Under the pieces are notes generated by a model. That model searched no databases. It saw only the letters and a program-made list of their open reading frames with translations, and had not been told where the DNA came from. A stretch of DNA of 64,000 nucleotides from Trypanosoma brucei (lineage: Eukaryota): positions 320,001 to 384,000 of the forward strand of contig AL929603.2 of NCBI GenBank assembly GCA_000002445.1. Reading direction: 5' to 3'. This document shows, in pieces, positions 40,261 through 62,416 of this stretch. The number at the start of each line of letters is the position of its first letter. The stretch's first letter is position 1. Both the position numbers and the translations under genes were made by a program.

Positions 40261-42252
40261 ATGGGTGCCTTTCCGTCTCATGATGCCCCTGAGCTCATAT
40301 ACTCAATGTTAGTTCTGCGTCCATCGACAAATTCTCAGGTTGAGGTTTGCCTGGTGCCTCTTCTGCCGCGTTTCTTCAATGATGGGCACAAAAAGGCGAA
40401 GAAGAAGCTCAATGAACTTCTCGCCAGCAAAGGAGCGCATCAATCGTCACTAGCGGCGTCACTTGCCCCTCGAGCCCCAGCGACTATAGCTCCAGGGAAG
40501 GTTCCAGATCAGGGAATCGGTCACGCCTTAGTGGACTACTTCATTTCCAGTACGGAGGGATCCTTTTTTGTAACCACAAAGGATGCCGTAGTTAGTAAAG
40601 TGGCCATACAAGCGGAGCAAGGTCAAAGGGAGAGGTCTGACATCAGCACTACTGGAGGAAGATCCGCACCAGGTACCGCCTCCACAGGTGAGACACAACC
40701 CTCCAATGCACCATCTCATACGGCGCATCATTCGTCATCCCACCAGGCAATGTCCAACTCTGTGCGGCCGGTGCCATTTGCCGTTTGTATTGTGGATTCG
40801 GATGTCTCCACGGGAACTCCGGGCACCACTGGAGGGTCCGCACAAGCGGCAGCCGCTAAGCACCATCATGTACATGCCAATAATGTTGTCCTTATCAAAG
40901 GGCGGCGGCTGCAACTTGTTGGCTTTATTGCATGTTGTATGGATCGCCCTGTGCGACACATGACCACGGCAAATCCTGTCAAACCACATGGAGCTAGCGG
41001 TGGGGCGGGAGCAACCTCTGGAGAGGGAAAGAAGCAAGGAATCCCTGTCTGTCTGGATGTTATTTTTGATGATACAGAGGCACATGGGTTCCTTACCGAG
41101 TCTGTAGTGTTGTTGGCATCATTTGCCTTCCGCAAGCAATTCTTGAATTGTTGTGCTCTTCACTTTCGGGCCGGGGATCCCGATGTGGAATCATCATTTG
41201 GGCGCCACATGGACCCCTTGCAGCTTCGACTAGTGATGAGGCATGACAACTATCGCATTTTACGCCTGTTTCATAGCCGGTACCCCCTGTTAGACATGGT
41301 CAAAGAGCTTCGCGTAAGCGGGGGCTCGTCGGCCCCGCAGTTCTCTCTCTATGAAAACGATGGAAATGAGGTTGGTTTAGAAGTGACGTTTGGTATGAAT
41401 TTTTTAACGCGGTGGATGCGGTTTGTGGAGAAGATGATGCACGTTGAGACGGTGGTTGGTAACCACATCCGTTGCGGTACCACCGCCATAATGTCGGAGC
41501 GAGATAAACTAATACAGGAGCGCAGGGACAGTGGCGCATTCCTGGAGGAGGAGGAGGATGATGAGCGAATCTTTGGGGGAGCCGTGTACGCCGTGTCGCT
41601 GAGGCGGTGGACTGCTGCAGAGAAGCAGGCGGTTCAGCAACAACAGCAAGTTCCATTGAGTGGAGCATCTCCCATGTATGTGTATCCCACTACCGCTGCT
41701 CCTGGTCAGTACTGGCCACAGATGTCCGTGATGATGGGGCAACCTCCAGGGTGGCCCACTAGTGTTGTTCCTTTGAGTGCTGCTGCTGCTGCACCGACGG
41801 CCGTGGCACCGGTGATTGGGCAACAACAACCATTTGTTATTCAAGCATCAGGGACGCGACCGCAATTGTACTACGCGTCGCCGCAACCGACTGTAAGTGG
41901 GAACGCCACTTTTGTTACCCAGAGCGGTATTCCGATAGTACAGCAAGCAGCGACGGCGTCTCCATTTGGTGTTGCGGCAACACAACCCGCCTCTGGGCAG
42001 CAGATCGTATACGTCATGCAGGGCGCCCAGGCAACTTCCGCTAGTGTTGCAGCCCCTACAGTTTCGGCTATGGCGCCTGGCATGACTCCTCAAGCATTTT
42101 ATTATCCCCAAACTACCGCCTACGCTGTTCCCTACTCTCCATACGGCTTTCAGCAGCAACCACAGCAACAATTGGTAACACAAGCGACTCATATTGGCAC
42201 TCAACAACAACAACAGCAGGTGACATCGGCGGGGCAAGTAGCTCAACAGTAG
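40261..42252 (+). CDS. Member 1 of a three-gene paralogous family. It has an MGxxxS N-terminus (N-myristoylation-type) and a Gln/Pro/Ala-rich C-terminal low-complexity tail.
   Basis: MGAFPSHDAPELIY... Shared blocks with the 47865 and 54878 genes are PVPFAVCIVDSD, GRRLQLVGFIACCMD and FLTESVVLLASFAFRKQF. The C-terminus is poly-Q/A/P. Confidence 0.6.
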   Translation: MGAFPSHDAPELIYSMLVLRPSTNSQVEVCLVPLLPRFFNDGHKKAKKKLNELLASKGAHQSSLAASLAPRAPATIAPGKVPDQGIGHALVDYFISSTEGSFFVTTKDAVVSKVAIQAEQGQRERSDISTTGGRSAPGTASTGETQPSNAPSHTAHHSSSHQAMSNSVRPVPFAVCIVDSDVSTGTPGTTGGSAQAAAAKHHHVHANNVVLIKGRRLQLVGFIACCMDRPVRHMTTANPVKPHGASGGAGATSGEGKKQGIPVCLDVIFDDTEAHGFLTESVVLLASFAFRKQFLNCCALHFRAGDPDVESSFGRHMDPLQLRLVMRHDNYRILRLFHSRYPLLDMVKELRVSGGSSAPQFSLYENDGNEVGLEVTFGMNFLTRWMRFVEKMMHVETVVGNHIRCGTTAIMSERDKLIQERRDSGAFLEEEEDDERIFGGAVYAVSLRRWTAAEKQAVQQQQQVPLSGASPMYVYPTTAAPGQYWPQMSVMMGQPPGWPTSVVPLSAAAAAPTAVAPVIGQQQPFVIQASGTRPQLYYASPQPTVSGNATFVTQSGIPIVQQAATASPFGVAATQPASGQQIVYVMQGAQATSASVAAPTVSAMAPGMTPQAFYYPQTTAYAVPYSPYGFQQQPQQQLVTQATHIGTQQQQQQVTSAGQVAQQ

Positions 42253-44121
42253 ACAGTGGTGGCACCGCGCAATTTTTTTTTTTTGTGGTAACGCCACACC
42301 TTATGGGTGTTGTTATGTACTTGTTGTTATCCCTATTTATTTATTTTTTTATTTATTTATCACGTGTGAAACGGGGTATTTTTGTCATTGCCCCATAACA
42401 CGTGTGAGTGTAAAGCGGCTGTGGCTCTGATTGTTTGATGCCAACGATGGAACATTTGGTGCGTATGTGGGGGGCAAAAAACAAACAAACAAACAAACAA
42501 ATAAACTAATTAACGGAGTAAATACGGGTGGGTCGAGAGGGTGAAGTGGGCAATCGGTAGGAATGGAAAAGGAAAAGAGACGAAGTACGTTTGTACATGC
42601 AACTTGCTTTCACATCATACCGATTCTCTATCCCCCGTAAATGAACTAATAATATAAATAAAATCATTAAAAAGAGAAGAAGCTAGCCAAAAAAAAAAAT
42701 GATATACATATATATATATATATATATATTTGAGGGGGGGGAAAAAAAAGTATATACATAAGTATATATGTGCGGTGGAGGTAAGTGCGTGTACTTCGTG
42801 TATATGTGTTTGTGTTTGTGTTTGTGTACATGCCCCTCTTCCCTCCCTCCCCCTCCCTCCAAAACAAACAAACAAACAAACTTATATATATTTTAGCTAA
42901 CATTGTTGTGAGTAACGAAGTGAAGGGTGCGAATAACGAATGGCCCGTCGTACAGAAGCGCGTGGAGGGGAGGCATATGAAATATATGATTAAGGGAAGG
43001 AACAGGAAAAGGAAAAGGAAAAGGAGGAGGAGGAGGAGGAGGGAAATAAGAAAAAAAAAGAAAAGGAAAAAAAAATAACTCAATGGTGAGATGTGGCGGT
43101 AATATTTCTGCATTGGCATGGGTGTTTGTGTGCATGTGACAGAGGGTTTAAGGTAAAGTTGCTGTTTTTTTTTTCTTCTGTTTTCTTTTATACAAAAGTG
43201 GAAAGGGACAGGAAGGAGAAATTAGTTTTGTGAGAACACCTGTAACATCCGGGCGCGTGCGTTTGTGTGTGTCTGTTTTGTGCGGAAAACAGAAAAAAAA
43301 AGATAATTGAGGTAAATGCACAAATATCAACTAATGGATATCTCACCATCATCATCATTATCATTACCATTTTCATTAGCAACGTTATCGCCATTTTTGG
43401 TAACACCCTCATTTGTAATGGCAGCTGTTTTCACTCTGAGTTGAGTTATTTCCTCCCTTTTCAATGGCGCATATATTAAAACCGCCGTTGCCATCGCCGT
43501 TGCCGTTGCCGCTATCATCATTGCTCTCTTTTTTTTTCTCTCTCTCTCTCTTTCTCTCTCTCTCTGCTTTTCGTAATGAACATTCCTCAAAATGTGATTA
43601 TAGCTGAATATTCGTGTGCCTTTTACCTCAGTGGGTGTCAAGCTTCCGTCACAAGTAAGAAAGTAAAAAAAAAAGAGAAGGAATACATCACTAATTTTCT
43701 TTTTTTCTTTTTTTTTCTTCTTCTTCTTCCTTTTATCGGGGTGGTGATGTTCACGACTTTCCGAATGTTTCTACTTTTTTAAAAAGAAAAAAAAACAACA
43801 ACAATATTTTATGTTCTTCAATCATGTTCTTTTTTTTTTTTCTCTCTCTCTCTCTCTCCCTCTCATCCTCTTTTTCGTTTGTTTTATCTTCTTTCGTTTG
43901 AATTGCTGCTTCTTCATTTATCCTATCTTCTTGTTTGTGTTTGTTTCGGATTTTTGTTTTGTTTGTTTGTTAAACAGAATCACACTTTTCAGCGGTTATG
44001 CATTTTTGTATCTCATTAAATTTCCTCTTTGTCTCCCTTTTGTCTCTCTTTTTCTTTTCTTTTGAATTTGGCTTCAGTACACACTTTATATTAGAACATA
44101 TCATATTACAAACACATACAA

Positions 44122-44156
<35 letters not shown>

Positions 44157-46884
44157 GTATTTATCAACTGAAACGAATTTCCCTTCCATCTTCTTGCGAA
44201 ACTTCCTCACATGGATGCAGCCTTTGTGCGTGGATGATAAATACGTGAATACGTTCGCTTATATTCAATACATAAGCGGGTGCAATTGTCGTTGTTGTTG
44301 TTGTTGTTTGTGCACGCGTACATGAAACATTTTCTCATTATTATGTGCTTATGTTTCCTTTCCTTTCCTTTTCTCTCTCCCTCTTTTCCGCACGCGCACA
44401 CAAACATGCACATGAATATGCGCAACATCTTATTAAATATGATTGCTGGAGTTGTTTTATATTAATAATTTTGGTCCCCTTCCTTTCTCTTCATCTCCTC
44501 CTTGAGTAAATGGATAAATTCCATTTTATACACTATGTAAGGTTTAATATATAAATATATAAATAAATATATATATATATATATATTAGAAAAAATGAAA
44601 GGAAGGAGAAGGCAGCGAAAATAAAAGAATAGAAGAGAAAAGATAGGAGAGGAGAGGAGGAGAAGGGGGGAAAAAAGAAGAAATTAAGAAAAAAAAAAGT
44701 AAAATGTGATAATTATAGAAGAATGAACAGTGGTGTCCGAGCCGGAATGTTAAATAGTCCAATTGATGTGAGAGAGAAAGTAAGAGAAAGAGAGAGAGAG
44801 AGAGAGAAGTCCTAGGATTTCAAACAACATCATTCATGGGATATATAGGAAGCCAAAAAAAGGAACATATTTGTCTTTTGTCTTTTGTCTTCTTTCTTTG
44901 GAAAAAAATAATAATTCATCATTGCCTTATATATATATATATCACTCAGTGATCACGTAAGCTAATGATGAAAAGGGAACAAATGCATTTCATCGGCACC
45001 TCGCCTACGAGAAACCCGGAAGGTTACGCATAACCCGACTCAAGAAATTACGGAATTATCCAGTGGGAAGGAAAAAGCAACAACAACAACAACAACAACA
45101 AAACAACCACATGTAACTCAGGACTCAATACTTTACAAGTGAGGAAAAAAAATAAAAATAATTACAAACTTAAGTTTTTATTGGAGGACCGGCTTTGGAA
45201 GCCGTCATATCGAAAGACCGCCATCTTTAGTTTTCCCCTTTTGTTTGTTTGTTTGTTTGTTTTTGTCCCTCGGAAAGATGAGTTGAAACTCACTTCAACA
45301 ATATCATGTGCCCAATACTTTCCATTACCATAAGAGAGAAAGAGTGAAAGAGAGAGAGAGGGTACTCTAAGTTATTATGCATTGTAGTTATATATTTATA
45401 TGTACATTAATATTAATATTAATATTTTTGTTATTTAATTTATATATTTATATATATTTATATATTCATGTTGGTCTGTTGGTATCCATGCAAAACCGAC
45501 CCGTGCATGAAATGTGGACTTTCATAACATAATATAAACTCAAATTCGGTACTGGTTGCTTGATATTACGGTAACGCATTTACTGCCAAAAGGCGAACAA
45601 TTCTCTGAAGGAAGAAACAAATATAGGCGCATGCATGCAAAAAAAAAAAAACAACAACACAAAAGAGGAAAATATGGCTTCAGGAAAAGAGGCACGGAAG
45701 CGAATCAAGAAGAAAAATAAAAATAAAAAATTAGAAAGTGGGTGGGAAGGGGCGAAGAGAAATATTTCTATTAGTGGTGAATGTTATGTAGATATGCACT
45801 CAGCAGAGACATTAATATAGACATGTGAAAAAATAAGTAGGTGTGTATACAATAAATATATATATATATGTGTGTGTATATGTATGTATATATATGTATA
45901 TAAATGTATATGGTGGTGCGTGTTATAAGAGGAGGAGGTTTAATAGTGTGGGATTTGTACAGTTGTTTCTCTCTTATCAATTCATTCGTCTGTTTCTGTG
46001 TTTTCCTCTCACCATGTATCGATAAGACGGGAATTGTCACCCGAAAGTTTGTTAATGCACTTGTTTTCTTTTTCTTTTTTTTTTTACTTTCTCGCATTTT
46101 CTGTAGCCCAGTGCCACTTCGACTACCATTACTATTATTATTATTATCAGTAGCAGTAATAGTAGTAGTAATATCAATATTTGCTTTGGTGTTATTAAAG
46201 TTGATATGTTATGAGTGTTGTGATTGTGACTGTTAAGATTTAATTTCTTGTTTCCCCTCTGTGAGTGTATTTTTATATATTATTATCATTGTTATTTTAA
46301 TCTGTAATCTCTTTGTTTTATTTATGTCTCTCTCTCTCTCTCCCTCTTTGTTTGTCTCTTTGTTTTACGTCCACTTCTTCAATTCGTTTCTTCTTTCACT
46401 TTCCCTTTTTTTTTTCGTAAAAAAATTGTGTCCCTTCCGTTTAACCACGCAATTTTCTGTTGTGTTTCACTGCATTGCATTCACATTTGACGGGGTTAGC
46501 CGGAAGGGAAGTGAAACACACAAGAAAACAAAAGAAAAAGGTAAAGTAAAACAGAAAAAAAGAGTAAAGGGAAGTTATTTATTTATTTTTATTTTATCTT
46601 CTGTTCGTATTTGTCGTCCGCGCGACATTCGGCGTTTGTTTTTGTGTGCGCGGTTTTGGCTGTTAGTTTCATATCCAGTCGGATCCGTTCAGTGGCGTGG
46701 CTGTGCGAAAAAGTTTAAGGAGGAGGAGGAGGAGGAGGGGAAGGAAAAAGAAGAAAAGAAAAATAAAAGAAGCAAGAACAAAAACAAAAAAGAAAAAGAA
46801 GAGGAAAGAAAAGGGGAAAGGGGCGCGGCTCATCTGCACTTTTACTCCATTGCATTCGCCCTTTAAAAGAAAAAAAAAGAAAAG

Positions 46885-46911
46885 AAGGGAAGGGAAGGGA
46901 AGGGAAGGGAA
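46885..46911 (+). repeat. (GGGAA)n pentanucleotide repeat inside an A/G-rich block (46700-46925)
   Basis: gggaagggaagggaagggaaggga. Confidence 0.6.
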
Positions 46912-47864
46912 AAGAAGGAGGAAACAAAAAAGAAGAAAATTCCTTTATCCCTTTCTTGTGCCATCGTCATCGCAACACTATAAACAATAGGGAACGTGTG
47001 TAAACCTTTTCTCTATCTCTCTCTATCTCTCTCTTTTTTATTATTATTATTTTCTTTGTTCCATACAAACACACAAGCCGACTTAACATAAGGCAGTTGG
47101 GGCGGAAGCCGCGGGCACCACCACTGCTGTAGTTGTTTTTTTTTAGTTTTTCTTTGTTCTTTCGTGTCTTATCTTATTTTAATTTACTCTTGTTTTTTGT
47201 TTTAGTGCTTTTTTTCTTTGATTTATTGTTCTTGTCGGCACCGTTATTGTTATTGTTGGTGCTACTCCCAGTGGTGCATTACTTTGGACGAGGCAAAGTA
47301 GTCCATTTTTTTTTAAAAATTATTCCTCCTCTTTGTTCTCTTTCTTTTATTTAATTCATATTTTTTTTTACTATTTGTTACCGTTATTATTTGTTTATTT
47401 GTTGTTTCCATTTATTTTAATTTACTGTCCTGTCATTCACTTTCTTTACGAAGGTGTAAGTTGGGAAAAAACGTGCGCACGGGAGAGAAACAGAAATACA
47501 AATACATACAGAAGTTAGGGGAGAAATAAATTAAAGCAAAAAAGAAAAAAAAGAGAAGAAACAACAGAACGAAACAGAAGAAAAACGGAAGGGGAAAAAG
47601 AACAGAATTAAGTGACAACACAGTGAGAAGAAGGAGTGAAAGCGAAAAAGGGGGAAAACAAACAGTAACAAAGCAAAAGAAAAAAAGAGTGAAATTCTCT
47701 GCTTAATAAAAAGCAAGTGTATATAACATATATATCTGTATATATATATATATACCTATAATTTGTTTATTTATTTATATATTTGTCTTGTTATTGTTAT
47801 TGTTATTTTTTTTATTTTTGATTACTTTGCCATTGATATATATATATATATATATTTGTTAACA

Positions 47865-49622
47865 ATGGGTGGTATTCCTTCACGCGACGCGCCTACTACA
47901 TTGTTTTGCCTTCGGTACGGCACCCATGAGGTAGGACTCATTCCCCTCGTGTACCGCTACTTTCACAGTGATAACAAGGAGTTGCGAGAGCAGTTTGTGC
48001 GGGTGCGTAATGATCCGAGCATACGCTACAGCTTCATGCGTAGCCCCGAGTATCGTATGGATGAAATACCAAAGAAAGTGTATACAGAGAAGACTCTGGA
48101 CAAGTTCCTTGATGTTATCGATGAATCACTTTACGATTCCACAAGTGCGATGCTCGCAGATGAAGACGCGCCATTCCGGCCCGTTCCTTGCGCCGTTTGC
48201 TTCGTGTATGTTAATGGTCGTGAGGGATCTGATTGTTTTTCATTCTATGGCCGCCGCATTAATATCATTGGTCACTTTGGCTGTTACGAATCCGAGGATA
48301 GGGTTAGTGAAGGCCCATGCCTCCACGCCCGAAAAACTATTTTGAAGGCTGCGGGTGATCGCACGCTGGAGCGTGTTGTTACACTGGCCGCTATGATGCT
48401 CAAAGGGGAATTCTTCCGCGCCGTTCAAACGGTGTGCCCCACGCGGGACCCACTGGCAATGTTAAAGCGCCGACTGAATCCCTTGATACTTGTCGCCTCT
48501 ACACCATGGAACAGTTACCCCACCTTGAAGTTTGTTTACGATACCGCCGTTATTGCATGGGCGTATGGAAAGGAAGTCGTTGAGGCGGATCCGCCGCGCC
48601 TCTCCATGTACGAAATTGAACAAAGCGGTGAGGGTGGCTTATGTATGCGAGTCAGTGGCTCGGTGCTTTTGTGGGCTGTTATGCGCGTGTGTGAGACACT
48701 TACGCTTTCTGCAGTGCGTGGATCCTGGGAGCAGTACGTGCTGGATGACTTTGAGATGCAGCAGAAGGAAAAAATTGTCTCCCAGTGGCTTTCCACAAGC
48801 CCACATGTAAACAGTTTCCTCGGGTCAGAAACATTCACCGACCTCGTACAGAAACGACTGGCTACTCTTCTGCGGGAAGTTGTGCGCGCCCGTGAGACCC
48901 CGACAGAAGACACAACGCTGTGGGGTGAATCACAGGAGTATAGTCATGATGGAAAACTCTACCGTATCTTCAATTCCCCAACTTGCGGCCCTTTCCTTGC
49001 AACTGTGAAGAAGAAGGTGCCTAAGCGGGGAAGCAGCGCCAACACCGGCAATGCAAGTATTACAAGTGCAACTGGTGGTGACTCAGCGAGTGACCGGCGC
49101 TCCAGTGGTGTTCACCTCACGGACTCACCCAGCAGTGGTGGAGAAAATAAATCCCGCAGCTCCGGTCAGGGGAACCCCCGATCCAAAAACAATGGCAACC
49201 AACCTTCTGGTTTCCCCGCACACAACAATGCTGGTCAGCCCCCGCAGTACAAAGATGCTGTCAATAGTGTTCTCCAGTCGCAGTTCGCAACAGCTGCGCA
49301 GCGTGTCGTGTATCAAATGCCGCCTCCCGTCGGCAAAACCTCTCAGGGCCAAGTGTCCGTTTCCCCTCAGATGTCACCGCAGTTTGTACCGATGTTTCAA
49401 ACTGCACCTCCGCCACCCATGCAGCAATTTAGCGTTCCATATGTTGTAATGGCGCCACCCGAGTCACAGCCGCAGCCGCAGCCGCAACCTCAACCTCAAC
49501 CACAACCCCAAATGGGAATGGTGTTCCCAAGCACTGTTGCAAATTATGTGCTTTTGCCAGATGGGCGGGTCGGAATGATCAACGCACCAGCGCCCCCCAC
49601 TATGGGCTTCTGGGGTCAGTGA
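47865..49622 (+). CDS. Member 2 of the MGxxxS/Q-rich paralogous family
   Basis: MGGIPSRDAPTTLFCLRYGTHEVGLIPL... Shared blocks are PVPCAVCFVYVNGREG, GRRINIIGHFGCYE and TLERVVTLAAMMLKGEF. The tail contains a (PQ)n run. The track ORF begins at an upstream non-ATG start; the first ATG is 47865. Confidence 0.6.
   Translation: MGGIPSRDAPTTLFCLRYGTHEVGLIPLVYRYFHSDNKELREQFVRVRNDPSIRYSFMRSPEYRMDEIPKKVYTEKTLDKFLDVIDESLYDSTSAMLADEDAPFRPVPCAVCFVYVNGREGSDCFSFYGRRINIIGHFGCYESEDRVSEGPCLHARKTILKAAGDRTLERVVTLAAMMLKGEFFRAVQTVCPTRDPLAMLKRRLNPLILVASTPWNSYPTLKFVYDTAVIAWAYGKEVVEADPPRLSMYEIEQSGEGGLCMRVSGSVLLWAVMRVCETLTLSAVRGSWEQYVLDDFEMQQKEKIVSQWLSTSPHVNSFLGSETFTDLVQKRLATLLREVVRARETPTEDTTLWGESQEYSHDGKLYRIFNSPTCGPFLATVKKKVPKRGSSANTGNASITSATGGDSASDRRSSGVHLTDSPSSGGENKSRSSGQGNPRSKNNGNQPSGFPAHNNAGQPPQYKDAVNSVLQSQFATAAQRVVYQMPPPVGKTSQGQVSVSPQMSPQFVPMFQTAPPPPMQQFSVPYVVMAPPESQPQPQPQPQPQPQPQMGMVFPSTVANYVLLPDGRVGMINAPAPPTMGFWGQ
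49463..49510 (+). repeat. (CAGCCG/CAACCT)n coding microsatellite giving a (PQ)n run in the 47865-49622 CDS
   Basis: cagccgcagccgcagccgcaacctcaacctcaaccacaaccccaa. Confidence 0.7.
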
Positions 49623-51901
49623 GCGAAGCTTCTGCGCTGCGGAGAGTGGGGGAAGTGTTTTTCTTTTTTTTTTATTTTTTTACTCTTTTTATTTTTATGT
49701 TGTTGGTGTTGTGTTATTATTATTATTATTAATCACTGGCAGTGTAAATATGTGCCTGGTTACGTCGGTATTGGTGTACGTATATAAACATATATATATA
49801 TGTATTCGCTTTGTTACCCGCATTCTTCCACTTCAAGAAGGGCAAAAAGGAAGAGAAATAAAAGAAGAAATGTAACTTTGTGTTTTGGTTTTTATTTGCC
49901 CCCCCCCCTCCCGGTTTCTTCGCTTTGTCTCTCTTCTCCTGCATACACGTGCGCTATTGTGTTGCGGGCCAAAATGGTGTCATTTGTTTGTTTGTTTATT
50001 TGTTCAGTGTTAAAAAGTTTTCACTGCTTCATCATTTGTAGCTGTGGTGGTGCTTCTTTTTTTCTTTTTCTTGTGTGTGCATATATATATATATATATAT
50101 ATTGACGTTGTTTATTTTTGTTCCGTGCGGTGCCGAGTGACCGCTGTTGTTCCTAACTTTTGGGTAGACATCACTAAAACGCATTTCTACTTTGTAGTTG
50201 CTATCGTTGTTGTTTTTTTCAAAGAAAAATATTTGTTTATTATTACTATTTTTTAATAATATCTTCCAGCAACTGAAGAAAAAAAATAATAATTATAATA
50301 ATATATATTATAATTTAATTATTTATTGGGTTTGATAACTTGTTTGGTACATTTTCAAGGAACCAAAATTTTTTTGTAGAATTTATTTTATTTTATTTTT
50401 TTCGTTTTTTCCCCTTAAATTGAAGTAAGAAAGGGGACAAAGAGGAAGAAAAAGAAAATAAAATGAGGGATAAGGTCAAAATAAATAAGGGAGCGTTGAA
50501 ATTAAAGAAAAAAAATATGTATTTTTTCGATACCTCTCATAAGTCTTCTTTAAAAAAAACGAGACCCATGTTATTTAATAAAACAATTCAGAGAAAACGA
50601 AATGAGAGAAGAGGGGTAAAAAAAAGAGAAAGATACAAAACGCCATTTCATTGATGGCAATGTGTTGAGTGAATGGGACATTGCATTTTTATATTTTTTT
50701 TAAAAAATATATATATTAAATGAATGATAGTTAGCGAAATGAAGCAGAAAGAAAAAAAAGAAAAGAGAAGAGGAGGTAGAGGGAAGAGATGATATTAATA
50801 ACCGACCATTGTAAGAAAAGTGAAGAAAAAGGAAAAAGAAAAGGCATTGTGTTATTGCAGAAAAGACACAAACATGATGCCGTGTAGAGGAGGAAAATAT
50901 ACTCCAAAATAATAATTAAAAAAAAAAGGAAGAAGCGCTGTGGCACCTACGCAATCACATTTATAAATACCTAAATATTTAAATACAAGACAAATCAAGC
51001 GACACATGTATATTTGTATTTAATGTATTTATAATATATTTGTTTATTTATATATACGTATACATACATACACGAATGAACAAATAAACACAGAAATATA
51101 TATATATATATATATATTTATTTATATTTATATTTATATATATACACGCATACTTAATAACAAATACCCCAGAGGAACATGGTTTCACGATTGTCAGCCT
51201 TTTCCTCGTTATTTTATCTTTTTTTTTTTTTACTACCAAAATACTGAGAACCCCCGCCGATTTTGTATTTCTTTTTTAAAATTTCATGTTTACCATCGTC
51301 ATGATGTTTATTTATCACTGCTACTAATTATTATTGTTGTTGTTGTTGGTGTTGGTGCTGTTGGTTTTTTTTATTTTCTTTCGTTGTAGCTGCGTAACGC
51401 AAATCGTTTTGTTTGTTGATTGTGCCCCCATTTTAATATATTTTCTTTTTTCCCCTTTTTTACACTGTTTTTTTTTGTTTGTGCTCCCATAATTTTTTTC
51501 AATGATTGTTTTTTATTTTTAAATTTCTTGTTATTATTGTTGTTGTTACTATTTTTTCTAAATTTATTTTGCGGACATATTTATATTTCAATATTTAATG
51601 CGTCCATTATAATTATTATCACTGGTTTCATTATCACCTCGTCTTGTTTTTTGTCTTCGTCATGAATCTGCGGACGTATTTCTCATAATGTCCAAAATAA
51701 ATAAATAATAGTAATAATATTAATATATATATATTAATATTGTGTGATGCGTATTTCTATCTCTTATTTTCAACTTGTAAAGAGAAGGAAAAAGAAAAAA
51801 AAAGGCAACAAATCTGTAACATGCATTACTCCTCGTAGTAGTAGTAGTACTAGTAGTTTTTTTTCCCCCAACCAGCTCCCGTTTTTGGCCGTTATTTTTA
51901 A

Positions 51902-51903
<2 letters not shown>

Positions 51904-51956
<53 letters not shown>
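51904..51956. repeat. (TTA)n microsatellite, about 17 units
   Basis: ttattattatt... is uninterrupted for about 53 bp. The 51744 and 51770 ORFs on opposite strands decode it as poly-I/poly-N artefacts. Confidence 0.8.
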
Positions 51957-52355
51957 TTGCTCCTCATCTACATCTTTTGTCGTTGTTATTGATGTCTTTT
52001 TTTTTTGTCTCGTGGAGGGCAGCAAAATAATAATTAAAAAAAAAATAATAATTTTAAAAGAAAAAACAAAAACACAACACAGAGCAAAAAGGAAAAAAAA
52101 AGAAAGAAAATGGTAGCGGGGAATCGTGTTGGGGTTTAAGCGAGAAAAAAAAAATAATAATTCCAAGCAACAGCACCAACAATATTAGTAGTAGTAATAA
52201 AAACAAACAAAAAACAAATATCTCTTTTTTTTTTGTCTTCTTAAAAAGTTGTGTGTATAAAAAGTTCCTGCACGCGGATGTGGACCTCCTTCCTCGTCCC
52301 ACTTCTCGTATTTTATTACTATTATTATTGTTATGATTGCCATCATATATATTAC

Positions 52356-52393
<38 letters not shown>

Positions 52394-54877
52394 CCTGCAC
52401 ATATGCTCCGAAACATATATGAATAAATACAAAAAAAACTAAATATTTATTATATATTTATACATAATTGTTTTCATCATGTTTTAACACTTCCAATATA
52501 AATGTGAGTGATTTTATTTTATTTTTTTGACGTGTACGTGTACGTGTATTCAATTTCCTTCTAACGAAATGAAATGAATGCCCTTGAAAAAGAGAGAGAA
52601 GTGAAATAAAAAAAACAAAAAAATTGAAGTAAATGGGAGGGCTGAAGGGGTCGTGTACTCCTAATTTTAATTTTAATTTCTTTTGTTTTGTGACTTTTTG
52701 TTGTTGTTTTCGTCGTTTTCTTTCCTTTTCTTTTTTTTGTTAAAGCACCCGACGCCGCGTGTAATGACGCAGTGGGAAGCAGTGGTGTAAACAATTCCAA
52801 GAGAGCAAAGGAGTTGAAAAGTGGAGCAACAATAAATAAATATAATTTGTAAAATTATTGTGTGACGAAACAAAACAAAGCACAACAAAACGGAAATAAA
52901 ATATATATGTATGTAGATATATATATATATATATATTGAGTAAATGAGTGAATACCCCTCTTTTTTTTTATTTTATTTTTTTGAGTGTGAGGAGAGAGGA
53001 GAAGGAATATTAATGAAGGAGCGGATTGTTTTCTAGTTAAACAAAAAAAATTATATAGAAACTGGTAGAAAACACACGGGATGGAAATTGAGCGGTAAAA
53101 ACTTGAGAAGAGGACGAAGTTTTAAGAAGGATATGCGAGCGATGTACATTTCATTTTATTTTTTGATTCTCTTTTATTACTATTATTATTTTTACTTTAC
53201 TTTTTTTTCTTTTTCTTTCTCTTTTTATATCTTATATGATTATTAATATTTTGCCTCTTTTTAATAGAGGTTCATGCAGCGCATTCGCCTTCGTTGGTGC
53301 AGTTCTTCATGATCAATTCGTAAATCTCAACCCGCCGCGTCACTTTTTTCCTCCCATTTTGTTGTGTTTGATTTGAAAGGGGGGAATGGGGTAAAAATTA
53401 GAAGGAGAGCCATTGTGTTGTTCATTCGCAAGTGTGTTGTTATTAAAATTCAACTTATATATATTTCTTTATTTTTCTGTATATTTTTAACGCATTTTTA
53501 CTTTTAAATAAATAAATAATATATATATATATATATATGACTATTGATTTTCTCCTCCTTATTTGGTCGTTGTTGATACTTGTATTTCTTTTTTTTTTTT
53601 TGTGTGTGTGGTTTGTTCGTAAGTTTAACTCATCCTCTGTTACCATTACATATGTGTGTTTGTGTGAAGGAGTGCGATAGAGCGAGAAGGAAACAGAGAG
53701 TGTGTTTGTGTGCATTTGAAAGAAAGACAAAAATAAAAAGCAAAGCGAAGAGGGTGAGAGTATATATATATATTATTATTATTAAACCAACAATAAAAGA
53801 GGGAAAGTGGGGGAAGGTAATGGAAGTGTGAAATGTTGTCGTGCATGAAATTTCGAAGATATGCGTACGATCTAATTTTATGTATTTGTGTTTGTTTACA
53901 CGCGTGCGTGACATAAGTAAATGGAAGTGTGGGATGGGACATGGACAAATAATTGCCATTTGAAATATTCGTTAATTGCATCCCACCCTGTCCAATTCCT
54001 TTTGTGGCGCTCCGTGTCCTGCTCAACTCCATCCCCTTTATTTTATTTCTTTTTTGTCGTTTATTTTATTTTATTTCAGGCCCATTGTCAATTTCATTTA
54101 TGCTCTACGTGTTAGCTCTACTAATGACTTTGCAATGTCTTCATGTTTCATAACCCTTATTGGTTTTATCATTTTTACTGAATCACTTACTCGCTGTACA
54201 TCACTCTGTTTCTTCTTCTGTTCTTATGTTTTTTCTTTTTTGTTTATTTATTTATTTATGAAACAACAACAACTACAATCATGAACAGGTCTTAAAGTCA
54301 CTCCAGGGGTGTGAAAAAAGACAAAGTAAAAGAGGGAAAGAGAAATAGGTCTTTTCGCTCTTTTTTTTACTTTTACTTTTGTTTATTTTTCTTTTTCCAT
54401 TTCCATAAAGGAAACTGTCATTTATACGAGAAAGACAGGGGAAACCCAAATAAAGGAGGGAAAAGAAACGTGATCATCGAAAAACAAAATAATAAATCTT
54501 TTTGTCATTGTTTCTGCCTAACCTTTAGCGAGGTTATATAACGCTAAAGTGCAGAATCAGAGAAGAGGCTGAGGGGGAAAAAAAAAGAAAAAAAATACCG
54601 AAACGGGGAAGACAAAAGAAAAGAAAGATAATAATAATAATAATAACAAGAACAAGAACAAAAACAGGGAAGCAAGAGAACCGAGTGAGGAAAAGGGTAA
54701 CTTTGTGACAGGAAGGACCTTACATCAAAGGGGAAACACCTTTAGAGAAGAAAACGTTGCTGTAATTTCGCATTTGCCACACGGAAAAGTGTAGCAGACA
54801 AGAAAACGAAACAAGCAACAACTACGAGCACAAACACAACAAACGGCAAACAGCGACGGTGACGGTGACGAACAAAT

Positions 54878-56872
54878 ATGGGAGGTGCGCCTTCTCGGGA
54901 GGCGACAGTTGTGTACTCGTATCTGCGAGGTACGTATGAAATTGGCCTCATTCCCCTTACAAGTGCTTTCTTTGGCCGGCCGTCAGGACGGGGGGAACAT
55001 GAAGGGGAAAATGTGCTACGGGGGCATTTCTTACAGATGCGGGAGGATCTCTTCGCGGCCTGTACACTCCCAACCCGAAACAAAGTGCTCTCATGGACAG
55101 AAATCGTGCCCAATCGATTTACGGGGGAGGACCTTGACGCGTTTTTGGAAATTGTGGACAAGCGGCTCTACCCAACAAATGCGGCAATGGTAGCAGATAA
55201 AAATTCTCCACTTCTCCCGGTCCCATGTGCTGTTTGTCTTGTCTGCAAAGATGGTCGGGAGCGCCGTGGCAGTTTTCGCTGGCGCGGGCGGAACATTGTC
55301 ATCATCGGTTACTTTGGATGCATGGATGAAAAGCTTGATGCGGCTTTCAAAACAGAGAAACGCACGCCACGCCAGGGGATGTACAGCATCACTGCCGCTG
55401 TATTTCCCTCTATTGGTGATCGTACGTTTGACCGCGTTCTTGCCTTAGCACCAGTGATGCTTCGGGGGCAGTTTGTGGGATCTGTGTTGCAACTCCGTAG
55501 GGGAGGAGGGGAATTCGCAACGCCCTTGAGTGAGCGTGGGGAAATGGTTGATGTCTCTAGTGAGGCTCCTTCGCTCGGAGCGGGAATTGGTGGAGTGGTA
55601 GGGCAATCAGATGGATTGATTCATGAGGATTCTGCAGTTGACAGCGCCTTCGAAATGTTCGTGGAGCGCGTCTCCCAGATGTCTGTATTCGTTGAGGTGG
55701 TCTCGGATAACTACTCGTCACTGAAGTCTCTAGTGGAAAATGTTGCCTTCATCCAGATTCATACACAGGCGGAACCTAAACAGTGTACGCTTGATCTTCC
55801 TCCAATCGTTCAGAACGCCTTTAATCGCACTACAACTGCGAGCAGTTGCGAGAAGAAAGCTGACGCGGAGGGTCACCATGCAGAAAAGTCGCCTCCACAA
55901 CGTTCATCTGCCATGGAACAGGGGTCTTCTTGTTGCACCGTGCAAGGAGTAAGCTGCTCGTTGGAGCGCGATGATTTAACCGATCTGTCCAGTGTGGAGC
56001 CTGAAGGTTCATCTCACTTAAGTAAAGTGCCAACGGAGGATGGTGGTAGTTTTCACTTCTGTACAGAGATAGTTCGTGTTCATTTCAACGAGAGATATGT
56101 GTCCCTAGCCATCCAGTGGCTCTCAAGTTTCTTCCGAAAACCAACCTTGCTTGAGAATGGTTATTGGGTACACTACTGCCTGAAAAAGGAAGAGGAAGTG
56201 ATACGCAGAATACTCTGCCATCGCGATACTATTGTCTCCGGTTGGCGAACGTCTCACCCCGAACTCGCTAATCAATACATGGGTGACGGCACGGACAAAC
56301 TACTGGAGCACGTACGGATCCTTCAGCACGAATTACAACAAGCCCGCAAGGCTGCAGAAGAACCTACACTGCGTAAAAAAGCCAGTACGCCTCCCACTCT
56401 GCCGTGTCCGAATACCACTTCAATGGCAGTGTTGGCACCACCCCCTCCGCCTCATGTGATGCCGTACGCCGTGCCTCCTCTTCCGTCACCGGTTTATTTT
56501 GTTCAACAGCAACCTGTGGGAAACCCCATGTTTGTGTCGTTGCTTCCTTTTCAGCAAGTGCAGCAGGTTCCACAAGTGCAACAGATCCCACAATTTCAGC
56601 AGGTGCCGCAAATTCAGCCACTGCAACAGATTTCGCATGTGCAGCAGATCCCTCAATTGCAGCAAACCCAACCGGTACAGTCGATATCGCATGTTCAGCA
56701 GATTTCGCATGTGCAACCGATTCATCAAGTGCAGCAAATCTCACATGTGCAACCGATGCCATTGTACCACCTCCAACCACCTGAATTACAACAGCCCTCG
56801 GTTTGTTATCTTCCCTTTGGGGATGGAGGAGCTCTACCCCCAAGTTATGTCATTCCAAGCTCGCTGTCGTAG
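54878..56872 (+). CDS. Member 3 of the MGxxxS/Q-rich paralogous family, with an 18-bp periodic hexapeptide repeat in its tail
   Basis: MGGAPSREATVVYSYLRGTYEIGLIPL... Shared blocks are PVPCAVCLVCKDGRE, GRNIVIIGYFGCMD and TFDRVLALAPVMLRGQF. The tail reads QQIPQFQQVPQIQPLQQISHVQQIPQLQQTQPVQSISHVQQISHVQPIHQVQQISHVQP. Confidence 0.6.
   Translation: MGGAPSREATVVYSYLRGTYEIGLIPLTSAFFGRPSGRGEHEGENVLRGHFLQMREDLFAACTLPTRNKVLSWTEIVPNRFTGEDLDAFLEIVDKRLYPTNAAMVADKNSPLLPVPCAVCLVCKDGRERRGSFRWRGRNIVIIGYFGCMDEKLDAAFKTEKRTPRQGMYSITAAVFPSIGDRTFDRVLALAPVMLRGQFVGSVLQLRRGGGEFATPLSERGEMVDVSSEAPSLGAGIGGVVGQSDGLIHEDSAVDSAFEMFVERVSQMSVFVEVVSDNYSSLKSLVENVAFIQIHTQAEPKQCTLDLPPIVQNAFNRTTTASSCEKKADAEGHHAEKSPPQRSSAMEQGSSCCTVQGVSCSLERDDLTDLSSVEPEGSSHLSKVPTEDGGSFHFCTEIVRVHFNERYVSLAIQWLSSFFRKPTLLENGYWVHYCLKKEEEVIRRILCHRDTIVSGWRTSHPELANQYMGDGTDKLLEHVRILQHELQQARKAAEEPTLRKKASTPPTLPCPNTTSMAVLAPPPPPHVMPYAVPPLPSPVYFVQQQPVGNPMFVSLLPFQQVQQVPQVQQIPQFQQVPQIQPLQQISHVQQIPQLQQTQPVQSISHVQQISHVQPIHQVQQISHVQPMPLYHLQPPELQQPSVCYLPFGDGGALPPSYVIPSSLS
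56560..56770 (+). repeat. Coding tandem repeat with an 18-bp period, about 11 degenerate units of (S/P)HVQQI, inside the 54878-56872 CDS
   Basis: Units are directly visible: cagcagatttcgcatgtg / caaccgattcatcaagtg / cagcaaatctcacatgtg ... Confidence 0.7.
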
Positions 56873-59800
56873 TGATACATAGTGAGGAAATAAGAAAAAC
56901 AAAAAAAATGGATGAACGTGTGTAGTTCCATACCATGACTAGAGGAGCTGGAACGGCTCGTTCTTGTTCTTTTGATTTTTTTTCTTCCTTTTTATAAAAT
57001 TTTTAATTTTGTTGTTTTCTTTTTCTTCCCTGTTCTTCCTCTTGAAATGGTTAATTACCTTCCACTAGGATTGCTGTTTTTTGCCCTCTCAGAAGGCGTT
57101 TTTTTTTCTTTGTGCGCTCTGCTCGCATATTCGACATGTCCATCCTTTTTAGTTTTGCTTATAAAATGAGGAAAAAAGAAAATGAAGACTCGTTTCTCTT
57201 TATGTTTTTGTTCCTTCTGTTTGTGTGTGTTTGTTGTTGTTGTTGTTTTTGCGTGATTTTATGTGTGTGTGGGTAGTTGTTTTTCTTTTTCTTTTTTTTT
57301 TGCTGCTTTCGAAGCATTACGACTTGTAGCTGAGCGTTAAAAGCGAATGATTATTATATTATTATTATTATTCCCTCCTCTTCCTACTTGTCTTTGTTCG
57401 GCGGGTGTGTTTCTCCGTCGTGTTTCCTACTTTTTTTTTTGTGTATGTGTCTGTGTGTGTCTTTTTTTTTTTCCTGCTTCAAATTTGCTGCAGACAAATA
57501 AACAGAGAAAATAAAAGAGATGGTCATCTTCTCTTGTTGTTGTTTATTGTGATTCATTTTTTGTTTGTTTGTTTGTTTGGGGGAAGTCCGCGGATATGTA
57601 GAACAATTATGTTTTTCTTTTTTTTTTTGCTTAAGAAGTGGGAAGTAGTTTTTTTTTTTTCTGCTTTTGGTTGTTTTGATTTCCTGTTTTTGGTTGTCTC
57701 AGCCTTGCGTCCATTTGGATCAAGATAACACACAACTTCTTATTTGTCTTGTTTTTTGTTACTTTTTCGTTTTTTTATACTTTTTTTTTTCTCTTTTACT
57801 ACTTTCTCTTCCTGTGTTCGACTTTTTTTTTTTTTAATCTTTGTTTTCTTTTTTTGTTTGTTTATTTATCAGTTGTGCTGTTCTGCTTCATCTCATTTCT
57901 GCGGCTTTTCACACTTTTTTCGGTCATTTTTTTTTTACTTTGATTTACTTTTTTTGTCTGTTTTTTTTTCCCCCTTTCCTCCCTCCCCCCCTTTTCCTTT
58001 TCGGTGTTTTTTATTATTGTTATTATCATTATTATTCTTACGCCTATGGCTTTCATTTATTACTGTTTCACTGTTATTCTACACAGTGTTCTGCTATATC
58101 CCTTGCGTCGCAGGGAGTGACAACACATTTATATATATATATATATATGAAATATACAAATAATTATAAATATATATATATATATATATGGTCGTGTCTG
58201 AAATTGTATGTGCCTGTTCAGGGAGGAGCGTGAAAAAAAGAAAAAAAAGAAAAAGAAGGGGGAGGGAGAAAGAAAAAAAAGAAATAAGGAAGGAAGGAAG
58301 GAAGAAACAGAGAAGGAACAGGAAAGAAAGGAAAAAGCAAATAAAAAATGTACACATAAATACGCACGTCTGCATGCGTTTGTTTTGTGGTTTGTTGAAT
58401 ATTGAGTGCTTGGTTGAGTTAGAAACAAAACAAAAATAAAAATAAAAGGTGATGGAGATGGAGATGGAGATGGGGTTGGAAACTACAAAACAGACAGACA
58501 TGCAATCATGCGTGTGGTGCGTATTTATATTTATTTATTTATATATATATAAATATATATTTATTGATATATATTTTGACTTATGCACTTAGGCATATTT
58601 ATGGTGAAAGAACAACAACAACAACAACAACAAAAACAAAGTACAAAAAAGTTCTTTTTTTTTTCTTTTACTTACTTACTTAATTTTTCCTTTTGAGACG
58701 CGCACGCACACATGCCTCGCGTGCAGAAAAGAGGTTGCTCCAGTCGCCCCACCCCGCTGGAATCCGTCTGTGAAGCTTCAGGCTGCTGTTTAAGTTCCTG
58801 GTCGTAATTTTTTTATTCGTGTCTCTTCTTCTTTTTGTTTTTCTTTTTTCTTTTTTTTAAATTCCATTTTATTCGGCTGGGCCGCGCATTGTTTTTGTTT
58901 GTTTTTTGTTTTCTTGTTTGTTTGTTTCGGGTCTTGTATAATTTTAGTTGTGTTGTTGTATCATTTGTTTGTTTGTTTTTCAAACCTCCAACACGTGTTC
59001 CTTTTTTTTTTATTTATTTTTGCGTCCTCATGAGACCCCGCACCGCACCGCCATCACACAAATAATAAATAATAACAATAATAATAAAAAAAGAAAGACA
59101 AAAAGAAAAAGAAAAAGGAAAAGAAAAGAAAAAATATATATCTTTTGACATGAACACACATGCCGGCGCACGGTCGCCTTATTCCAACATAAAGAGAGGG
59201 GAAAAGGAGGAAAAAAAAAAAGAAGAAGCGTATTCCCCACTGGGAGAAGTAAATCCAAGTAAAAACACGAATAAAAAAAATATAACAAATGAATGGGAAG
59301 TGGGAAAAAGAAAGGGAGGATGAGGAAAGTGAAGAAAGAAAGGAAGAAAAGAAATAATTTTCCTTTTTTTTAAAAAAAAAGGAAAAGGAAAGGAAAGGAA
59401 AGCGGAAGAAGAAGAAGAAAAAGGAAATGAAATTTAAGTTTAAATTTAAACGAAGAAAATGGAATGATATAAAGATGGAAGTGTAGTGTTTGTTGCGCAT
59501 ACGGCGGTATGGGAGAGAAATTTGAGAGGAAAATTGATTAAGTGAATTAAATAAGAAGAGAAGGATTAATAGATATATATATATATATATATACATATGA
59601 TGGAAGGGAATGATGTGAAACGTGAAACTCGTGCGTTTTTTTTGTGTGCTTGTTTATATGTCTTTCCTTGTTTTTCTTTTTGTTTTGACTTGTCTCGCTG
59701 TGGCGTGACGGGAGTTTGTAAAGGCACTTTTTCCCCGTCATTATTATTGTTATTATTATTATTATTATCTATTGTTATTAGTATTCCTATTCCTATTTCT

Positions 59801-61314
59801 ATTCCTACTACCGCTATCATTATTATTATTATTCATACTATTCCTATTGCTACTACTATGATTATTATTATTATTACTATTATTATTATTGTTATTGTTA
59901 CTATCATTACCCCTCGTTTGTATTTATACTCATGAGTACAAATACATCCACTATTCACACATTTATATATATTTATATATTTACATATATATATTTATAT
60001 ATAAATATATTTCTGCTTGTGTGCTCGTTTCTTGTGTACTGCACTGGAATAGGAGGAAAACAAAAAAAAGCTGCAGATAAAGTGAAGAAAAGAAATTTTT
60101 TTTATTATGGAGGGGAGAGGATAAAAATAGCAGTGATCATAATGAGAACAATTTTTTTTTCCTAACAGAACAAAGCAAAAAAAAAAGTGCGTAATTAGGA
60201 ACAGTGAAGAGGAGGGGGGGGGAAAATAAATAAATAAATAATAATAATAAATGAACAGCACCGCATGAAAACGTGTGAAATGTTGGTGTCTTTTTCTTCC
60301 TCCTTTTTTGGTAAAGGAGTGTTTCCACGTGTTCCATACTTCCTTTCCAATATTTTTCTTGCTTTTTCTTTTTTTTTCTTTTCTTTTCTATCCTATTTTA
60401 TGGTTCATGTTTGTTTTTTTCATTTTCATTTTCATTTTCTCTCTTTCTCTCTTTCTCTCTCCCTCTGCGTGTGTGCGCTCATTTGTGTGTTTGGACTTGG
60501 ACTTGGACTTGGATATGACGTTATTTTAAGTGCTTTTTTTTCTTTCTTTTCTTTTTTCTTTTAAAATATTTGGTTGGTTGCGGTGTTTTTTCGTTTTGAT
60601 AAATTGGGGCTTAAGTACGAAAAAAAAAAAGGATGACGATCAAGTAAGTGAATGAATTAACAAAAGAAAATAAAATGAAAATAAAATAAAATGTATCAAA
60701 CAATTTTAAAAAAAATGATCGGAATGGTGAATTCTTTTTCTTTTTTTTTTCTTGATATATACTTCACTTCGATTTCTTATTTTTATATCAGTTATTATTC
60801 ATACAAAAAAAAAGTGAAAATAAAAATGTCGAAAGGAGGAACCCTGAATGACGGGAGCAACTTCCGTGATTTTGTCTTTTTTTTTCCCACTTTTCGGGAA
60901 CAACAACAACAAAAAGGAGAACAGAAAATGAAAAAAATGAAAAATAAAATGCAAGTGATAGTGATAATGATGATGATGATGATGATAAACAATAGTGATC
61001 ATTAGATCTTTGATTTTGAATTTGAAAAGGAGAAAGAATTGGTAATTGCCAAGCAAAAGGTTGGGACATTGCCGGTTCAAGGGGGAGGAATAACAAAAGT
61101 AAGTTAAATTCAAATGAAAAAAAAAAGGAGGGGGGAAAAAGTTGAAAGGAAAAATATTGGAAACGTATCCACAAAGTTTTTTTTTGAAATTTCCTCTTCA
61201 TTTATCTTTTCACCATTTTATTTAATTTTTATTTTGTATCATTACTTCCTTTCTGTTGCCTCATTATCTCATCTCACATACACGTTTCTACTTTTCTGTA
61301 TTTTCATATTTAAA

Positions 61315-61352
<38 letters not shown>

Positions 61353-62376: not shown

Positions 62377-62416
<40 letters not shown>

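Follow-up and report, generated by a model that had tools for sequence, protein, structure and literature searches.

Three ancient tandem paralogues on Trypanosoma brucei chromosome 1 combine an N-myristoylation signal with a predicted GNAT-like core and a prion-like tail

N-myristoyltransferase (NMT) is a chemically validated drug target in Trypanosoma brucei, Trypanosoma cruzi and Leishmania, with a few dozen substrates. A lone myristate confers weak, reversible affinity for membranes, and N-terminal acylation can also tether a protein with a degenerate active site, as in the lipidated pseudoenzyme MCA4, a metacaspase of T. brucei. The present study concerns three genes of T. brucei TREU927 chromosome 1, Tb927.1.1420, Tb927.1.1470 and Tb927.1.1500 (hereafter M1, M2 and M3), located within a stretch of 64,000 nucleotides (GenBank assembly GCA_000002445.1, contig AL929603.2, positions 320,001 to 384,000), which is referred to as the window and whose coordinates are used throughout. 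An original prediction made from this DNA alone had placed three coding sequences (CDSs) of one diverged protein family here, and all three were recovered as + strand open reading frames (ORFs), namely M1 at 40261-42252 (663 amino acids (aa), start MGAFPSHDAPEL), M2 at 47865-49622 (585 aa counted from the ATG, start MGGIPSRDAPTT) and M3 at 54878-56872 (664 aa, start MGGAPSREATVV). Each protein comprises an M-G-x-x-P-S-[RH]-[DE] myristoylation signal at its start, a core of ~340-390 residues, and a disordered, nearly uncharged Q/P/A-rich tail of 170-210 residues with a few conserved aromatic motifs.

The interpretation favoured here, tentatively and with a little less than even confidence, is that the trio are adaptors with a GNAT (Gcn5-related N-acetyltransferase) fold but no catalytic activity, that they are tethered reversibly to membranes, and that their tails would make multivalent protein or RNA contacts. 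NMT would place myristate on Gly2, and this single lipid, with no palmitoylatable Cys or basic patch nearby, would give reversible attachment to endomembranes. The GNAT-like domain, which to judge from sequence and from the secondary structure assigned by DSSP would not bind coenzyme A (CoA) in the canonical way, would serve as a ligand- or protein-binding pseudoenzyme module, against which the conserved N-terminal peptide would pack (DSSP and model confidence), while the tail would supply the multivalent contacts, with possible post-transcriptional effects. A regulatory or scaffolding role, as originally proposed, is plausible.

NMT-dependent lipidation has been shown for orthologues, in Leishmania for those of M1 and M3 and in T. 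cruzi for that of M3. In Leishmania donovani, LdBPK_200750.1 (M1) and LdBPK_200770.1 (M3) are high-confidence NMT substrates (Wright et al. 2015, PMC4372256 Table S5); with 7 µM NMT inhibitor the log2 drops for the pair were 5.02 and 3.66, both significant, and the analysis of variance gave -log10 p values of 8.55 and 8 (PMC4372256). A third family member, LdBPK_311540.1, stands in the same 30-protein high-confidence section, and the lower-confidence section includes LdBPK_311430.1, for which a YnMyr-modified N-terminal peptide was detected, as well as LdBPK_080630.1 (PMC4372256). The former is a probable family member, scoring 22.6 bits with the family profile, and membership of the latter is uncertain at 10.8 bits. 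In T. cruzi, K4DTI6 (closest T. brucei match Tb927.1.1500) was enriched with azidomyristate in experiments using stable isotope labelling by amino acids in cell culture (Roberts and Fairlamb 2016, PMC4974623 Tables S2/S4); its enrichment dropped with DDD85646 (log2 -0.05, -1.19 and -1.09, flagged significant), and K4E6H0, from another subfamily, behaved in the same way (PMC4974623).

The signal itself is encoded at 47865..47888 in M2 (M-G-G-I-P-S-R-D) and by the equivalent codons 40261-40284 in M1 and 54878-54901 in M3, all on the + strand, the proteins starting with MGAFPS (M1), MGGIPS (M2) and MGGAPS (M3). The Gly2/Ser6 NMT consensus read from the three CDSs extends to nearly the whole family: 28 aligned members show no variation at G2 and S6 and almost none at P5, the MG-x-x-P-S start occurs in ~90 of 100 relatives, and almost all full-length members start M-G-[AGS]-x-P-S-[RHAK]-[DE]. 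A second membrane signal was sought in M1, M2 and M3 and none was found, there being no Cys in the first 14 residues and no basic cluster.

The MG start is very likely, though not certainly, the real one in T. brucei, given the protein-level conservation of the N-terminus and the lipidation of orthologues at it. Reading upstream in frame, the first stop codon is met 39, 141 and 12 nucleotides (nt) before the ATGs of M1, M2 and M3, respectively, with no in-frame ATG upstream, and polypyrimidine tracts followed by AG occur 410-800 nt upstream of the ATGs. Around the M2 start (window 47724-47930) there is no AG from -141 to +63, a T-rich/(TA)n tract runs right up to the ATG, and the next AG, at +64, falls inside the CDS; the main trans-splice site of M2 is probably one of the polypyrimidine-AG sites 410-790 nt upstream, and a site inside the CDS is possible. 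Residues 1-57 are conserved at the protein level from Trypanosoma to Leishmania in the M2 alignment, and the cloning oligonucleotide for Tb927.1.1470 begins ATGGGTGGTATTCCTTC (Erben 2014, PMC4055773), so that the annotated M2 start is the MG start. In several database entries for orthologues, 6-97 additional residues precede the conserved MGxxPS (97 residues of low complexity in T. cruzi Dm28c TCDM_00994, for instance); the start codons of these entries appear to have been mis-called, which would hide the myristoylation signal.

The collinear paralogy of the three proteins was borne out by pairwise and profile comparisons. M2 and M3 align by BLASTP over the first 204 residues (E=4e-37, 37% identity) and M1 and M2 over 106 residues (E=1e-5, 25% identity), while the pairwise comparison of M1 with M3 has no significance by itself. 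Alignments of orthologues compared with hhalign extend these matches to 341 collinear columns between the M2 and M3 families (E=6.7e-53; M2 1-343, M3 1-490) and to 331 between the M2 and M1 families (E=9.1e-16, probability 98.6%; M2 1-334, M1 1-453). M1, which has the weakest scores by both methods, is the most diverged member, as had been noted, and is a genuine paralogue nonetheless. The conserved core, previously put at ~250 aa, in fact covers ~340-390 aa in M2 numbering, and is split in M1 and M3 by long disordered insertions.

The blocks quoted as common to the trio are present. The first occurs as PVPFAVCIV, PVPCAVCFV and PVPCAVCLV and the second as GRRLQLVGFIAC, GRRINIIGHFGC and GRNIVIIGYFGC; the third is present as TLERVVTLAAMMLKGEF and TFDRVLALAPVMLRGQF but has merely a looser counterpart in M1, LTESVVLLASFAFRKQF, where in addition LVPL replaces the proposed LIPL. 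Across the three subfamily alignments Met1, G2, S6, E22, L25, P27, P106, P108, A110, G136 and Y218 (M2 numbering) are invariant; the 28-sequence alignment adds D165 to this list, and the core alignments add G129. At the nucleotide level no similarity was detected among the three CDSs or their spacers, which rules out recent duplication or gene conversion and makes the ratio of non-synonymous to synonymous substitutions among the copies, proposed as a check, uninformative.

The trio are ancient tandem paralogues. In L. donovani the orthologues of M1, M2 and M3 are the consecutive genes LdBPK_200750.1, LdBPK_200760.1 and LdBPK_200770.1, the first starting MGGYPSHDAP (M1 type) and the last MGAVPSRECTSLFSYFRGSYEVG (M3 type), with membership of all three confirmed by the family profile; the synteny comparison suggested for other kinetoplastids thus returned the same trio, and the triplication is therefore older than the split between Leishmania and Trypanosoma. 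Locus tags of M1 and M2 are also adjacent in T. vivax, T. conorhini and T. rangeli. Word-indexed searches recovered orthologues alone, all of them 'hypothetical': those of M1 (8 aligned) and M3 were found in Trypanosoma, and those of M2, the best-conserved subfamily, in Trypanosoma, Phytomonas and Leishmania (13 found, 12 sequences aligned). A core-only profile run against 1.84 billion representative proteins gave 82 matches at E<=1e-3, 39 of them at E<=1e-30, and every match with a named source was a trypanosomatid (T. grayi, T. theileri, Leptomonas, Phytomonas, Angomonas and Leishmania).

What had appeared to be a local expansion to three copies is accordingly a family of at least five subfamilies across trypanosomatids, including some not encoded in the window, such as those starting 'MGAAPSAE...' and 'MGAVPSRE[ST]LxRGL...'. 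No fourth paralogue was found in the window by tblastn with members of the other subfamilies, which gave just weak matches to M1 and M2. On the sequences searched so far, the family appears to be restricted to trypanosomatids. Two further pairs were observed in the L. donovani gene list of PMC4372256 (Table S5), LdBPK_080630.1 and LdBPK_080640.1 being adjacent MG..PS genes of uncertain membership and LdBPK_311430.1 and LdBPK_311540.1 lying close together on chromosome 31, and several small family clusters may exist in Leishmania.

At the sequence level the core matches no named domain, as the original prediction had stated. Pfam gave no match at E<=1 for M1, M2 or M3 and, with the cut-off relaxed to E<=10, nothing relevant for any of 28 members, and in a profile search against PDB sequences the matches were confined to the low-complexity tail, with none for the core. 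Structure prediction was more informative: an AlphaFold2 model of M2 1-393, built with the 28-sequence alignment, was confident (mean predicted local distance difference test score (pLDDT) 88.4; predicted template modelling score 0.87), and in it the first ~260 core residues adopt a GNAT (acyl-CoA N-acyltransferase) fold. The modelled domain covers ~aa 10-264 of M2 (47892..48656, + strand) with the order β-β-α-α-β-β-β(bulge)-α-β-α-β-β. This fits the GNAT topology β1-α1-α2-β2-β3-β4-α3-β5-α4-β6(-β7), in which β4 carries a β-bulge: in the DSSP assignment of the model, strand 152-160 is broken at 157-158, the position of that bulge. Models from two paralogues gave structural matches that include PseH, NAT9, RimJ, RimL, Naa50, NAA60 and aminoglycoside acetyltransferases. 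The folded core of M1 (aa 1-455; 40261..41625, + strand) is likewise predicted to be GNAT-like, with four disordered insertions (aa 58-87, 132-164, 182-204 and 229-256), and that of M3 (aa 1-491; 54878..56350, + strand) is collinear with M2 aa 1-343 by hhalign and has two long insertions.

Beyond the GNAT-like domain, M2 has a C-terminal core part (aa 265-386; 48657..49022, + strand; pLDDT ~90) modelled as a helix, a hairpin, long helices and a three-stranded sheet (SHDGKLYRIFNSPTCGPFLATVK), this helical and β module running to residue 381 in the model. It is kept in all M2 orthologues and in M3 of T. cruzi and T. melophagium, where the hairpin LIQTREGRTCALHHT..GTMLVGIR matches SHDGKLYRIFNSPTCGPFLATVK of M2, and is absent from M1 and from M3 of T. 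brucei (window 56100-56350 region) and T. congolense. On these sequences, the hairpin module of M3 seems to have been lost specifically in the African trypanosome lineage.

The putative cofactor site bears on whether the GNAT-like domain could still be an enzyme. The CoA pyrophosphate loop would lie at the β4-α3 junction, K161-A-A-G-D-R166 in M2 (48345..48362, + strand), a placement taken from DSSP of the model and not from structural superposition. Compared with the GNAT motif Q/R-x-x-G-x-G/A, the site reads K-A-A-G-D-R in M2, (P)S-I-G-D-R in M3 and E-A-H-G-F-L in M1; 'LKAAGDRT' is invariant among M2 orthologues, its M3 counterpart being SIGDRT, and Arg/His or Leu stands in place of the final small residue, with an invariant Asp before it at the helix N-cap. 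By sequence and model, the loop appears degenerate, and lost in M1.

Set against the non-catalytic adaptors is the possibility that the trio are active, membrane-anchored, acyl-CoA-dependent N-acyltransferases, a kinetoplastid counterpart of Naa60 and other membrane-bound acetyltransferases that act on protein N-termini or lysines, in which myristate would bring a catalytic GNAT domain to endomembranes while substrates would be recruited by the tail. Recovery of the fold from two paralogues, with RimJ, RimL, NAT9, Naa50 and NAA60 among the matches, the bulge in the β4-equivalent strand, the partial K-x-x-G within an invariant M2 segment and a Tyr at the start of α4 that is invariant in all three subfamilies would all suit such an enzyme. 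Nevertheless, no GNAT model of Pfam matches any of the 28 members even at E<=10, Arg or His ends the loop after the invariant Asp, M1 has lost the loop altogether, and a fourth and a fifth subfamily have the Tyr replaced, so that an active enzyme is judged unlikely.

A myristoyl switch is a second alternative and is considered quite unlikely: the vestigial acyl-CoA groove would hold the protein's own myristoyl-glycine peptide, and release triggered by a ligand or partner would toggle it between soluble and membrane-bound states. GNAT folds such as that of NMT accommodate long acyl chains, and proteins anchored by a single lipid are typically switches. In the models, residues 1-10 have high confidence (pLDDT 88 in M2 and 82 in M1), with β-bridges to the core at residues 3 and 6, which suggests that the lipidated N-terminal peptide may pack on the domain, although the AlphaFold models contain no lipid. 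Residues 1-8 are also conserved beyond what NMT needs, P5 and [DE]8 being kept, but this conservation could instead reflect a partner-binding motif. An NMT predictor scores LdBPK_200770.1 (PMC4372256) and K4DTI6 (PMC4974623) as 'no' despite their modification.

The Q/P/A-rich low-complexity tails described in the original prediction were evident from composition in all three proteins, all on the + strand. That of M1 (aa 456-663; 41626..42249) has 20% Q, 16% A and 12% P with one charged residue in 208, and includes W/Y/F/Q positions that are invariant across 8 orthologues. That of M2 (aa 387-585; 49023..49619) contains 16% P, 13% S and 12% Q, is G-rich too, includes a (PQ)8 run and ends in the motif NYVLLPDGRVG...GFW (aa 559-585; 49539-49619), which is kept in Trypanosoma and partly in Phytomonas; AlphaFold2 pLDDT drops below 50 where this tail starts. 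That of M3 (aa 492-664; 56351..56869) has 20% Q, 20% P and 11% V and carries an 18-nt tandem repeat at 56555-56751 (hexapeptide ~QQ[IV][PS][HQ]V). M3 of T. b. gambiense and T. b. equiperdum has 652 aa against the 664 aa found here, 12 aa fewer, and the length of its tail is therefore polymorphic within Trypanozoon. The tails qualify as long, uncharged, Q/N-rich disordered regions, that of M2 being more P/S/G-rich. No match to the MKT1 motif (Y/W/T)(R/T/Q)H(N/D)PY or to PAM2 was found in M1, M2 or M3. A single match to the 4E-type Y-x4-L-phi motif was rejected as not credible, as it sits in the folded core of M1.

Functional hints come from high-throughput screens. For Tb927.1.1470 (tethering and array data from Tables S3, S4 and S7 of PMC4055773), the tethering screen lists the gene in its 'Decrease expression' sheet, at a low tier with 5 locations and 2 of 3 PGKB experiments (Erben 2014, PMC4055773 Table S3), the signal coming mainly from a fragment that starts at nt 1530 and was enriched 190x and 20x in 2 of 3 repressor selections (PMC4055773). 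This fragment corresponds to the last 75 tail residues, including NYVLLPDGRVG...GFW. On protein microarrays the same protein gave a ratio of 1.67 with poly(A)+ RNA (2 of 3 slides) and of 2.2 with total RNA (3 of 3 slides) (PMC4055773). In an ORFeome gain-of-function screen, Tb927.1.1500 showed 6-fold over-representation among cells that survived melarsoprol; its TrypTag localisation is 'cytoplasm (reticulated)', and it was placed under gene expression with citation of the work of Lueong 2016 on tethering and the mRNA-bound proteome (PMC7568655).

These data could also be taken to mean that the trio are mainly soluble post-transcriptional regulators or components of ribonucleoprotein (RNP) granules acting through their Q-rich tails, with lipidation and fold secondary. 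The RNA-array signal and 'decrease expression' listing of Tb927.1.1470 (PMC4055773), the grouping of Tb927.1.1500 under gene expression (PMC7568655), the uncharged, Q-rich, prion-like tails and the very long flanks resembling untranslated regions (UTRs), typical of regulated regulators, are in keeping with this possibility. It is nonetheless very unlikely, as there is no RNA-binding domain, the MKT1 (HNPY) and PAM2 motifs are absent, the trio are not among the strong matches of the tethering screen, and the tail is less well conserved than the lipidation signal and folded core, which are the most conserved features of the family. Highly unlikely, finally, is a lipid-sensor scheme in which the vestigial groove would bind the protein's own myristoyl-Gly-x-x-Pro-Ser, regulated release would direct it to endomembranes where the tails would assemble RNP or protein condensates, and loss of lipidation would explain part of the lethality of NMT inhibition.

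Returning to reversibly tethered, non-catalytic adaptors, several observations weigh against them and account for the tentative tone adopted above. The lipidation evidence comes from orthologues and not from the T. brucei proteins themselves; the M2 orthologue LdBPK_200760.1, although positive with both predictors, was seen in just 2 of 3 promastigote YnMyr samples (PMC4372256), and the M2 orthologue was not seen in the T. cruzi azidomyristate data (PMC4974623). The GNAT likeness is confined to the level of the fold, and Foldseek, while pointing in the same direction, gave weak scores (best E ~6e-3, TM 0.29/0.44, ~10% identity). The invariant Tyr that opens helix α4 (Y218 in M2) occupies the catalytic-Tyr position of many GNATs. 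As for the tail, both the tethering and the array signals for Tb927.1.1470 are weak and variable, with a PGKB mean of 3.9 and a standard deviation of 4.3 (PMC4055773), and tethering relies on an N-terminal fusion, by which myristoylation is blocked.

The identity of the genes and their surroundings agree with published annotation. The proteins of M1 and M3 are identical to XP_001218844/Q4GZ77 and XP_001218852/Q4GZ71, respectively (T. brucei brucei TREU927). The Erben 2014 tables (PMC4055773, Table S2/S5) give 1992 nt for Tb927.1.1420, 1758 nt for.1470 and 1995 nt for.1500, followed by Tb927.1.1530; these lengths are exactly those of M1, M2 and M3, and the gene order agrees. The exact M2 protein, and any T. 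brucei-group match to it, was absent from a 15-billion-protein collection in which M1 and M3 are present, although Tb927.1.1470 is an annotated gene. On the 5' side of the trio, window 13-38936 is occupied by housekeeping genes, all on the + strand in a single polycistron: a PPR protein, mitoribosomal S15, an RWD/DFRP protein, DnaJ, CTP synthase and homocysteine S-methyltransferase, together with the TUTase MEAT1, a kinesin, a HAT-repeat protein, PP2A subunit A and Hikeshi, the last being Tb927.1.1400 (PMC11825100).

The trio itself is set in unusually long AT-rich DNA with no credible gene, comprising 5.6 kb between M1 and M2 (42253..47864, + strand; GC content 0.34), 5.3 kb between M2 and M3 (49623..54877, + strand; 0.30) and at least 7.1 kb from M3 to the end of the window (56873..64000, + strand; 0.31), against 0.2-2.6 kb for the remaining intergenic gaps in the window. 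The Erben 2014 tables hold no annotated CDS between Tb927.1.1420 and.1470 (PMC4055773), Rfam at its gathering threshold found nothing in the long spacers, and no ORF after M3 runs off the end of the window. The spacer between M1 and M2 presumably consists of a long M1 3'UTR plus the M2 5'UTR. In L. mexicana, the M2 orthologue is likewise flanked on either side by ~10 kb with no credible gene (L001 1-10000 and 12947-22946), and very long UTRs therefore seem to be conserved at the locus; such UTRs would fit tightly regulated mRNAs. Four ORFs of 150-200 aa, at 46261-46866 (+), 42667-43119 (-), 56364-56843 (-) and 59054-59596 (-), encode poly-F/L/S or poly-K/E or lie antisense to M3; those at 46261-46866 and 59054-59596 had no match in Pfam, and all four look like chance ORFs in biased sequence.

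The family bears on the question of which NMT substrates explain killing by NMT inhibitors. It accounts for 3 of the 30 high-confidence L. donovani substrates, about a tenth, together with one probable and one possible substrate of lower confidence, and for at least two T. cruzi substrates, so that scattered 'hypothetical protein' entries of two N-myristoylomes are grouped as one family, given a fold and turned into a testable group, for which it can be asked whether the members are enzymes or pseudoenzymes, whether a lipid switch operates and whether they are jointly essential. The description of the locus as an undescribed system was right in part: the genes are annotated and have turned up in screens by tethering and by gain of function, on an RNA-binding protein array and in two N-myristoylomes, but always as 'hypothetical', with no treatment as a family in the searchable main texts. 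A literature search by gene identifier returned no main-text discussion of the trio or their orthologues in Leishmania, the one exception being a table entry for Tb927.1.1500, and no description of an architecture joining a GNAT fold, N-terminal lipidation and a prion-like tail was found in the searchable literature. The genes, several screens and the fold superfamily are thus already known; what appears to be new is recognition of the family with its at least five subfamilies, its share of 3 in 30 of the myristoylome, and the GNAT-like fold with lipidation and a prion-like tail.

Among described systems, the uncharged Q/P-rich tails recall PBP1, XAC1 and the poly(Q) protein Tb927.1.3070, which occur in the same tethering and array datasets, whereas the trio have no HNPY/MKT1 or PAM2 motifs, show weak tethering effects and are lipidated. 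With MCA4 they would share the concept of a lipidated pseudoenzyme, on a GNAT instead of a caspase-like fold, their own pseudoenzyme status being inferred. Like the kinetoplastid N-myristoylated proteins (ARF/ARL GTPases, CAP5.5, small calpain-related proteins, PPEF, HASPB and PP2C), they start M-G-x-x-x-S, and their orthologues label with YnMyr or azidomyristate in an NMT-inhibitor-sensitive manner; they differ in keeping P5, in the rejection of some members by a standard NMT predictor and in an unrelated fold and architecture, and, compared with CAP5.5, HASPB and PPEF, in having no nearby Cys for dual acylation. The closest fold is that of the GNAT superfamily, of the RimJ/RimL/PseH/NAT9 type with an extra N-terminal strand. 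From these proteins the family is set apart by the lack of a sequence-profile match, a CoA loop that appears degenerate or lost, long disordered insertions within the fold and an extra helical/β module of ~120 residues after the domain, to which it adds N-terminal lipidation and a low-complexity tail of ~200 residues, a combination encountered so far in trypanosomatids only.

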